From Macrostomum lignano (taxonomy: Eukaryota): a stretch of DNA of 64,000 nt. Every line of letters begins with the position of its first letter. The stretch's first letter is position 1. Under the pieces are notes generated by a model. It worked only from the letters and a program-made list of their open reading frames with translations. It made no database searches and was not told where the DNA came from. Below, one piece after another: positions 12,914 to 15,900 of this stretch. The stretch spans positions 620,001-684,000 of the forward strand of contig NIVC01000001.1 in assembly GCA_002269645.1 (NCBI GenBank), read 5' to 3'. The position numbers were made by a program, and so were the translations under genes.

Positions 12914-15900
12914 TCAGACGATCTGGAGAAAAAGTTTAGGAGACGCGATTCCGTTAGGCAGGTGTGTCGCTCATGAAAATTCAATAATAAAAAGTTAACT
13001 CTATCAAAAATTATAAAATGGGTTGGTCCCCAATGTCCCGCGGACACCTCAAACGTCCCAGGTGGGTCAGGCAGACACCCTCAATGTCCCAGGTAGGTCA
13101 GGCAGACACCCTCAATGTCCCAGGTAGGTCAGGCAGACACCCTCAATGTCCCAGGTAGGTCAGGCAGACACCCTCAATGTCCCAGGTAGGTCAGGCAGAC
13201 ACCCTAAATGTCCCAGGTAGGTCAGGCAGACACCCTCAATGTCCCAGGTGGGTCAGGCAGACACCCTCAATGTCCCAGGTAGGTCAGGCAGACACCCTCA
13301 ATGTCCCAGGTAGGTCAGGCAGACACCCTCAATGTCCCAGGTAGGTCAGGCAGACACCCTCAATGTCCCAGGTAGGTCAGGCAGACACCCTCAATGTCCC
13401 AGGTGGGTCAGGCAGACACCCTCAATGTCCCAGGTAGGTCAGGCAGACACCCTCAATGTCCCAGGTAGGTCAGGCAGACACCCTCAATGTCCCAGGTAGG
13501 TCAGGCAGACACCCTCAATGTCCCAGGTAGGTCAGGCAGACACCCTCAATGTCCCAGGTAGGTCAGGCAGACACCCTCAATGTCCCAGGTAGGTCAGGCA
13601 GACACCCCACTCACCTCAGCAGTCCGATCAGCCCCATAGGGTTGGTGCACCTTCTGGTGCGGTCAAAGGAGCTGCCTCATCGCGGCGACCCGGTTTTAAC
13701 ACCAAAGCTCCTAAGTCGTGGTCTTCAACCCATCTGCCCTCGCGTGCCTTCGGCACGGCTGGCAGGGAGACCGGTTGTTCTGCTGCTGTCTATCTGTCCC
13801 GCCTCGTCCTCTTTGCGCTCGCCCTCACTACGCTTGCCGGGGACATCGAAACTAATCCCGGCCCAGCCTGCAACTCATGCAACGGCCCAATCCGCACGGG
13901 CATGCACAGCCTGCCATGTGAGGTCCAAGAATGTTCCGAGCGCTGTCACTGTCAGAAGAAATGCAGCGGTATGCACCGCGCCGAGATTGTCCGATCTCCG
14001 TGGCGCTGCTCTGTGCACCGCCCCCTTGAATTGGACTCGGCATCCGCTGCGCACCTGCGTGACCTCCCGGCACCCGAGCCCCGCATGTCTCAGCCAACGC
14101 GCTGTCACAGCTGCTCAGGGCCCATCCGCACTGGCACTACTCCGCTCACTTGCGCTGCCAAAGGTTGCGCTCTGGCCTGCCACCGCTCCAGCAACTGCAG
14201 CCACATCTCGCGGTATCGTGGCGCCCCAGCTGGCTCTGCCCTCTGCATCGGCAGCAGGCGGTCCAACTTCCAGGCGCACACTCCATCTTCCGCCGCCCTG
14301 CTCTTACCCGCAGACAAGCTGATCCCACTACCGACAGAGATCTGAACGATCCAAGCGACGCCCAGCGCCGCTACTGTGCTAAATGCTCGACCGCCATTCG
14401 CCGCGGCGTCGCGTTTGTCAAGTGCAACTCCTGCAGCGCCGCTTACCACAAGTGCTGCACCGGCCTTAATCGCAACGCCGCGGATGCCGCGGCTCGCAGC
14501 CCTTGGGACTGCCCAGTTTGCACAGCGCGCACCCAAGGAGCTCCCGCCCCTTCGGCAGCTACGTCGCGCGTCCCCCTGCAGGACAAGGTCGCCCGCGACA
14601 CTAAATTTGCCGACAGCCTCCGTCTTCTCCAGTGGAACGCCGACGGAATCGCCTCCAAACTGCCCGAGCTGGCCGAACGCCTCTCCGACAGCGATATCGA
14701 CATTGCAGCTGTCCAAGAAACGAAGCTCTCCAACCGCACGCAGCTGCCAAAGATCAACGGGTACATCGCCGTGCGCAAAGACCGCGGCGACGGCAGCGGT
14801 GGAGGTCTGCTGCTTCTCATCAGAGACAAGCTGGCCTTCCGCTCGTCCCCGCAACCCACGGCCACAGCGGACATGGAAATCCAGACGGTCGACATCCAGA
14901 TATCTACCGCTAACTGGATTACCATCACCAACGTCTATGCTCCACCTGTCCGCACCTGCGTCGAGGATCGACAGCTTCCGGACTGGAATCACCTGGGCAC
15001 TCCGTCTCAGGGCATCATCCTAGGAGACTTCAACAGCCACTCTCCGGCCTGGGACCCTATACAGCCCCAAGACGAACGAGGCTCCACGCTCCTGGACTGG
15101 TCCATCGACACGCAACTGGAAATCCTTAACGACGGCTCGCCCACCAGAGTCAATAAAGCCACAGGTGGCGAAAGCTCACCGGATGTGTCCTTCGCCTCCT
15201 CAAAGCTGGCTAGCAAATGCACCTGGCAAGTCTCCGATGACCTCGGCAGTGATCACACGCCGATTGTGATCCGCCTTGACCTCAAGGTTAGGACCTTGCC
15301 TAAGGCCCAAAGCCGTCTCATATGGCGCAAACAAGGGGTCGACTGGAATGCTTTCCAAACGGTCGTCGAGGACAAATTTAAAGCCCTTCACAAAGAGCAT
15401 CTTACCTTTGACGCCAGAGCCAAACGCTTTAATGATATAGTCATGCAAGCGGCAAACCTTTGCATCGGCAAAGTCCGTACCTCGCACAGACCGCGTCCCT
15501 GGCTCACCCCTGAACTCAAAGCGGCGATTAAGCTCCGTAACCGCCTCAGGCGCTCCGTTGGCGAGAATAGAGAAGATTGGCTCAGCGCCTGCGCCAACGT
15601 TCACAAAATTGCCAGGGCAACGAAAGAGGCTGCTTGGCGTGACACGATAACCGATCTTGAGAAAGAGCCCAACTCGAACAAGGCGTGGAAGTTCATCCGC
15701 AGCCTTAACGGCACTCCGGACTCCAACTGCCCTAATGAGGCCCTCCAGGTCGGCAACAAAGTGTTAACAGACCCTAGAGACAAAGCCAACGCCTTTGCCA
15801 AGCAGTACGCCTCTGTCAGCAGGTACCACATTTCCCATTCGGATCGCGCTACTATCCGAGAAGCCAAAGCCATCCTTCGGCTTCCCCTTCCGCTCCCAGG

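Follow-up and report, generated by a model that had tools for sequence, protein, structure and literature searches.

CAG-targeting LINEs of Macrostomum lignano carry a 2A-like peptide in phase with host glutamine codons and may be translated from host start codons

A 2A peptide near the start of single-ORF, APE-type LINEs, in some of them with a PHD finger between the 2A and the APE domain, has been described and tested (PMC3708506), and the accessible text of PMC3894237 proposes down-regulation as a function of retrotransposon 2As and leaves the mode of initiation open. The L1Tc/ingi elements and Ingi-1_AC resemble the element studied here in having a single ORF, no ORF1 and a 2A located ∼40–80 residues from the N-terminus, ahead of the PHD/APE-RT region (PMC3708506, PMC3894237). 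L1Tc/ingi also carry an HDV-like ribozyme at the very 5′ end (PMC3383444, PMC4035085). In contrast to our element, no CAG targeting, host-repeat-phased leader or host-initiated translation is described for L1Tc/ingi in the accessible portions of PMC3708506 and PMC3894237, and an internal promoter and a proposed IRES are reported for L1Tc. Additionally, the ribozyme predicted for our element differs in having a P1 stem with a two-hairpin insertion and in lying inside an open frame. R2 elements are likewise target-specific and are cut free by an HDV-like ribozyme from RNA that is co-transcribed with the host (PMC3414825, PMC3774820). Unlike R2, the element described here possesses an APE endonuclease and a 2A. 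Since the target of R2 is the non-coding 28S rDNA, R2 is unable to borrow a host reading frame. LINEs that target microsatellites and insert into simple repeats were reportedly described by Kojima and Fujiwara in 2004; no report of a CAG target or of a host-codon phase was found for them in the literature searched. Engineered 2A gene-trap and knock-in cassettes are inserted in frame into coding exons, where the 2A frees the cargo from the host protein, and the present element would be a natural, self-mobile version of such a cassette. No precedent for a CAG-targeting or host-frame LINE was found in the literature listings searched, whose scope excludes Repbase and most subscription journals, and translation from a host start is, as far as searched, an undescribed strategy. 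Previous work had established the 2A in such LINEs (PMC3708506); what is new here is the phased CAG targeting that surrounds it.

The window analyzed here is a stretch of 64,000 nucleotides of M. lignano (contig NIVC01000001.1, positions 620,001–684,000, forward strand), which contains a 4.7-kb single-ORF LINE with APE, RT and RNase H domains on the plus strand. An 11-bp target-site duplication with a CAGCAG-type end (13613–13623) precedes the element, and the same 11 bases (18327–18337) follow its (CAA)n 3′ tail (18316–18326). These duplications place the 5′ end at 13624, two bases ahead of the start (13626) given in an earlier note on this DNA. The polyprotein (13863–18289) begins with Cys-rich, PHD-like fingers. 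The note had predicted a PHD-APE-RT-RNase H protein; APE, RT and RNase H, encoded in the long frame 14063–18289, all pass the Pfam cut-offs, while the PHD has weak Pfam support in the window family (E 0.038). With a single ORF, the domains APE-RT-RNase H, no ORF1 and an N-terminal 2A, the element is Ingi-like by architecture only. A genome search with the element 5′ end yielded 18 matches, comprising the window copy, 8 further full-length copies, 3 copies truncated in the leader, 2 fragments and 4 matches of another family. In 6 of the 8 other whole family copies, 1482 codons follow the aspartate of the 2A.

The leader (13623–13841) consists of 73 codons without a stop or an ATG, lies in the Gln phase of the target repeat and spans the predicted ribozyme. 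It is contained, together with the GDIETNPG|P sequence at its end, in the frame 13593–14345. When read from 13624 to GDIETNPG|P, the frame is indeed open and ATG-free from the element 5′ end through the 2A, as had been claimed. ATG is absent from all frames of 13624–13865; the first one (13877) is out of frame, and the first in-frame ATG (13902) is located within the first Cys-rich finger. The public gene model of a sister copy (P0001) begins at the Met matching 13902, and the leader has thus been missed by the model.

In the assembled window, the frame of the 2A runs to a stop at 14345 and is not joined to the RT frame, a correction to the earlier note. The window is 1 base shorter than the 8 other full-length copies over the 2A-to-RT stretch, which breaks the frame, and an extra base is present behind 14223 in RNA contigs of three of the four sequencing runs (X5, X8 and X13). 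The X5 contig spans the whole element, is otherwise identical to the window, and continues into window positions 12893–12922 across a minus-strand GT..AG intron, being spliced to the flanking exon of this very locus. As this contig has the extra base, no other difference and the splice of its own locus, the frame break is very likely an assembly error near 14223, and the window copy is in all likelihood intact. The alternative of a programmed frameshift joining the 2A and RT frames was rejected in view of the sister copies and the RNA contigs. No contig on the window stretch was found in run X1. The X13 contig starts at 13623, but contigs cannot show RNA ends or strand, and its start is not evidence of cleavage. 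None of the runs is registered as RNA; the spliced joints in the contigs show that the four runs contain mRNA.

The window copy is located, in antisense, in the end of a host tyrosine-kinase exon (18327–18589, minus strand; PF07714, E 2.7e-17). Spliced RNA contigs occur with and without the element, the allele without it being found in the same RNA runs. The minus-strand GT..AG intron (12923–13614), to whose far side (12893–12922) the loose ends of the X5 and X8 contigs match, belongs to the host and not to the element, and it holds a 31-bp tandem array. Intronic tandem arrays flank the locus on both sides (31 bp × 18 copies at 13043–13607 and 29 bp × 10.5 copies at 18603–18906). Along the minus strand of 12893–18589, the element is kept whole and in antisense in the spliced kinase mRNA, in which the last two codons are exchanged for ∼80 antisense-encoded residues; the empty allele is also expressed. 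Silencing RNAs directed at the family could arise from such an antisense-carrying mRNA. Because it is carried in antisense, the window copy offers no evidence on how the element is translated.

The 2A/StopGo-like peptide (13806–13865) ends in GDIETNPGP (13839–13865), with its aspartate at 13842, its last proline at 13863–13865 and a predicted skip between 13862 and 13863. It contains the G-D-[V/I]-E-x-N-P-G-P motif and the hydrophobic, Leu-rich tract characteristic of 2As, which includes the 14 residues directly before the aspartate. Two peptides with a matching 14-residue end are classed as skipping in supplement 3 of PMC13405545, and the window peptide differs from them further upstream; a 2A motif by itself is insufficient for skipping (PMC3708506). 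The supplement of PMC12338488 lists three Macrostomum 2A motifs, with activity given as N/A for two of them. In the 764-Mb genome, 133 sites fit the codon pattern for DxExNPGP, compared to 0 for a reversed control, and DIETNPGP is present in all 12 family copies covering the site, a check that the note had called for; together, these counts show that the motif is not due to chance. Across 7 close pairs, the last 20 codons up to and including NPGP have a pN/pS of 0.24 and the rest of the leader one of 0.63, which suggests weak constraint on the leader peptide and strong constraint on the 2A. Values of dN/dS for the region behind the 2A were set aside, since frameshifted copies distort them. The view of a canonical, conserved 2A ahead of the polyprotein is thus supported. 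Among related proteins from other sources, 11 of 24 have NPGP within the first 600 residues.

Two further ideas about the leader fared less well. The stretch ahead of the 2A had been likened to a signal peptide, but it is internal, beginning ∼53 codons into the leader, where the helix region of a 2A usually lies. Sea-urchin NLR signal-2As similarly consist of a hydrophobic stretch ending in DxExNPGP, although these are 26-residue N-terminal peptides (PMC4981915, accessible text). In our elements no start codon precedes the stretch, and hydropathy is not conserved, its peak ranging from −1.2 to 3.2 across 35 families; the dual targeting of signal-2As is accordingly not indicated here. The description of the leader as AUG-less holds for the window family and for only 3 of the 22 families with an in-phase leader (see below). 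The other 19 have an in-frame AUG in the leader, scattered from codon 4 to codon 79, and some of these families may also start internally. A leader AUG in good context is seen in some copies of family 3. In copies of the same family (L157, L193, L140, L106), TYCAWT directly precedes the 5′ end, a possible other target preference.

The earlier suggestion of a ribozyme-processed 5′ end agrees with the prediction of an HDV-like ribozyme at 13624–13712, obtained by descriptor fit from 13624. In this model, P1 is split into 3 + 4 bases (13624–26 and 13661–64) around two hairpins and pairs with 13687–93. It is accompanied by P2 (13667–73/13706–12), P3 (13674–76/13684–86), a one-pair P1.1 and a J4/2 of sequence CCAA; the nested double pseudoknot of P1, P1.1, P2 and P3 and the C in J4/2 fit the HDV-like class. 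All 71 cells are paired in an alignment of four families and 7 of 18 pairs show compensatory change, counts that lean in favor of the structure since it was derived from the same four sequences. The covariation among these families is confined to P2 and P1.1, with P1 and P3 invariant. All 9 full-length copies begin at the predicted ribozyme base 1 (13624 in the window). An earlier register, starting near 13639, was dropped after the split P1 and the covariation of P1.1 had been fitted. Rfam gave no relevant match at E ≤ 5 in 13000–14500, which the split P1 may explain. Among 28 families, 10 have no P1 fit and 5 more a weak one. The interruption of P1 by two hairpins (34–49 nt), forming a four-way junction, is predicted in the window (13624–13664) and in L214, L160, L219, L087, L077, L161, L093 and L107, and other families have a P1 with no insert or one base. 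No description of this split-P1 form was found in the literature listings searched. The insert could slow folding of the ribozyme.

Every copy of the window family with a host flank sits behind a CAG-type run. By eye, at least 3 CAG/CAA units are found at 18 of 19 3′ junctions of the family, and the window has 2. Relatives were collected from subsets of the 150 matches listed for an APE search and of the 100 listed among 133 motif matches. Together these gave 117 distinct 2A sites, which clustering at 85% DNA identity sorted into 37 families. A run of at least 3 CAG/CAA units lies 110–330 nt upstream of the 2A at 72 of these 117 sites, compared to 11 of 117, 7 of 112 and 3 of 112 in control windows further upstream. 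With their CAG/CAA runs, duplications of ∼11 bp where readable and a cut register that is fixed per clade, apart from exceptions such as L211, these elements are target-specific LINEs.

Several observations on the targets deserve mention. L089, L168 and L174 are located behind GAG/AAG runs and are also in phase, with Glu/Lys codons, which suggests a looser target. Related families (L038–L042, L215, L217, L218) have (CA)n rather than (CAA)n tails and keep the insertion into CAG runs. Nested insertions are frequent: many copies (L171, L194, L197, L063, L066, L151, L029) occupy polyQ or CAA stretches that belong to other retroelements or to repeats adjacent to related copies, and L171 follows a Cys-rich finger and polyQ in frame. 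Four 5′ fragments of family 7 (L368–L371) break off mid-leader in a poly-Leu run of the CTG type, which may reflect an antisense nested insertion.

The 2A lies in the Gln phase of the upstream run at 50 of the 72 sites, and in the other two phases at 12 and 10. An in-phase, stop-free copy exists in 22 of 29 families (18 of 29 by strict majority of copies); a binomial p of 3e-6 overstates the case, because the families are related and are not 29 independent trials. The in-phase distances take 20 values between 132 and 273 nt, a few of which come from truncated copies or flank variants. Alternative frames are open in 8 of 44 cases, and shuffled leaders in 14% of trials. The remaining 7 families are out of phase, and 5 of these have a leader stop in at least one copy. 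One of the seven, family 7, has an in-phase copy (L363) on a wider search, and a near-identical twin shows that one lesion is private.

The phase also holds across different cut sites. Among the well-fitted families, the predicted ribozyme base 1 is at codon position 2 in families 0, 5, 15, 16, 25 and 26, and at codon position 3 in families 4, 6, 7, 8, 12, 14 and 33. Target-site duplications confirm two cuts, C|AG (L210) and CA|G (L217, L215), and flanks ending in TA show that two bases at the CA|G cut are host-derived. Family 8 reads its ribozyme core in a different register, yet compensating changes on either side of the core preserve the overall phase. The position-3 families fall within one clade of 10 rows (100/100), so the switch in cut register represents a single event, for which the phase would be kept by chance in 1 of 3 cases. 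A start at a constant distance from the cleaved 5′ end would tie the frame to ribozyme base 1; instead, the leader frame follows the host codon and not the end of the ribozyme. A frame that is in the host CAG phase up to the junction, and whose phase follows the target, points to a start upstream of the element, and the simplest reading would be that ribosomes enter from upstream of the junction.

In some copies, the frame upstream of the junction can be recognized. L214 is one open frame of 1752 codons that encodes a host Met, an HSP20 domain, polyQ, the leader, a 2A variant (CVELNPGP), APE, RT and RNase H. Out of 17 near-identical matches in the genome, the 5 paralogues examined are all intact two-domain HSP genes with a polyQ linker and no element. 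One RNA contig (run X1) crosses the L214 junction with 48 host bases at a depth of 6.8; the other three runs have none, and this contig could stem from pre-mRNA or DNA. In family 15 (L214:1351–1360, minus strand), the ORF stop is directly followed by the CAA tail in phase, so that only one stop separates the element ORF from the rest of the host HSP gene, which continues in the same frame. L215 and L210, the latter a copy of the window family, are in frame in the polyQ of long frames, and paralogues without the element show these frames running on. Among 9 full-length copies of the window family, L210 is the only one seen to be in frame in a host frame kept by empty paralogues, and its host frame has no firm Pfam match. 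The truncated L148 follows a BED finger in frame. Pfam names only 2 Gln-phase upstream frames above cut-off (HSP20 and zf-BED) among the 38 scanned. L221 lies within a desaturase frame but in its Ala phase, and the long upstream frames of L208 are not the Gln one. Many insertions have fewer than 30 open codons upstream, and these may be non-coding sites or exon starts. Thus, most insertions are not in frame with a recognizable host gene.

Relatives with a different flank were also found. CAG flanks are missing from a clade made up of families 2, 9 and 21, whose leaders are likewise open as far as the 5′ end. An AUG of its own is present in family 2 and absent from families 9 and 21; they may depend on landing in frame by chance or use a non-AUG start. 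At some non-CAG copies of families 2 and 9 (L170, L199, L112), the flank and the first G of the element together spell an in-frame ATG. A search of metagenomes for related loci found none. A scan of 3 of 64 metagenome parts with the 2A pattern gave 120 loci, 23 of which have CxxC or APE-like sequence behind the motif; a CAG/CAA run is located upstream of 1 of these 23, out of phase and with a stop, and the phased arrangement was not seen in that small sample.

For the window LINE and at least 21 related families, we consider it somewhat more probable than otherwise that translation begins at the host AUG and that the 2A frees the enzyme. A copy in a polyQ-coding exon would be transcribed as part of the host mRNA, and ribosomes from the host AUG would read the host fragment, the polyQ, the ribozyme sequence and the leader. 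Skipping at the 2A would then release an APE-RT-RNase H protein starting with Pro, whichever gene was hit. As an active ribozyme would sever the ORF from the cap and AUG of the host, this route needs slow or partial cleavage: the ribozyme would cut part of the RNA, or cut late, producing the exact 5′ end of new copies and the template. Out-of-frame or antisense copies, such as the window copy, would be passengers for this route. By the same measure of confidence, which modestly exceeds even chances, the whole LINE clade may consist of natural 2A gene traps that combine targeting of polyQ codons, a translatable ribozyme, use of the host promoter, cap and AUG, and release of the RT by skipping.

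Three other explanations have to be weighed against a start at the host AUG. The note had proposed non-AUG initiation on a cleaved, uncapped RNA. In a broader form, initiation on ribozyme-cleaved RNA would be cap-independent, at a non-AUG codon or an internal AUG, and the match with the Gln phase would be an inherited coincidence. For L1Tc, the accessible text of PMC3383444 proposes that cleavage is followed by an IRES-like switch, full-length copies start exactly at the first base of the ribozyme, and four in-frame near-cognate codons occur in the window leader; the open leaders of the AUG-less families 9 and 21, which have no CAG flanks, keep the idea of non-AUG initiation alive. An internal start, on the other hand, needs no open, phased frame upstream of the ribozyme core, where lengths range between 7 and 22 codons. 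Clades differ in their offset from the first base while the host phase is kept, and no conserved near-cognate codon was seen at the 5′ ends. As the frame is phased to the host CAG codons up to the junction and tracks the target, we judge initiation on cleaved RNA to be the less likely course, with a small but appreciable chance of being correct.

The phase could also serve splicing, with the CAG| of the target acting as a 3′ acceptor to which a spliced leader ending in AUG, or an upstream host exon, would be joined in frame. The M. lignano spliced leader does end in ATG and its acceptors are CAG-type (PMC8629364), and joining after CAG would give exactly the Gln phase. Nevertheless, several families lie behind pure CAA runs without an AG (L070, L077, L218), the RNA contigs show neither loose ends nor joints of SL type at element 5′ ends, although contigs drop rare forms, and uncleaved RNA would still be required. 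We regard splicing as an improbable explanation. It is slightly more doubtful still that the main role of the open, phased leader is to protect either the host mRNA or the RNA of the element, by avoiding an early stop and reducing decay or drop-off, with the 2A mainly throttling the enzyme and the start site being secondary. Retrotransposon 2As have been proposed to act in down-regulation (PMC3708506, PMC3894237), and leucine-rich eukaryotic 2As often lower protein levels (PMC13405545). Such a role would still imply ribosome entry from the host frame, and the stop of the element truncates the host protein anyway.

Translation from the host AUG, if it takes place, would bear on two questions that PMC3708506 and PMC3894237, in their accessible text, leave open, namely why single-ORF LINEs carry an early 2A and how ribozyme-headed LINEs start translation. 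One answer, that the start codon is that of the host, is now directly testable at named loci in a laboratory animal. If it is true, the retrotransposon 2A gains a concrete purpose and LINEs gain a further route of translation. Target choice, ribozyme and recoding, which are usually studied apart, would be linked. This reading predicts that the source elements are only those copies located in polyQ exons, where they would inherit the regulation of the host, for example that of a multi-copy heat-shock gene. The analysis also identifies a family of natural integration enzymes that target CAG repeats.
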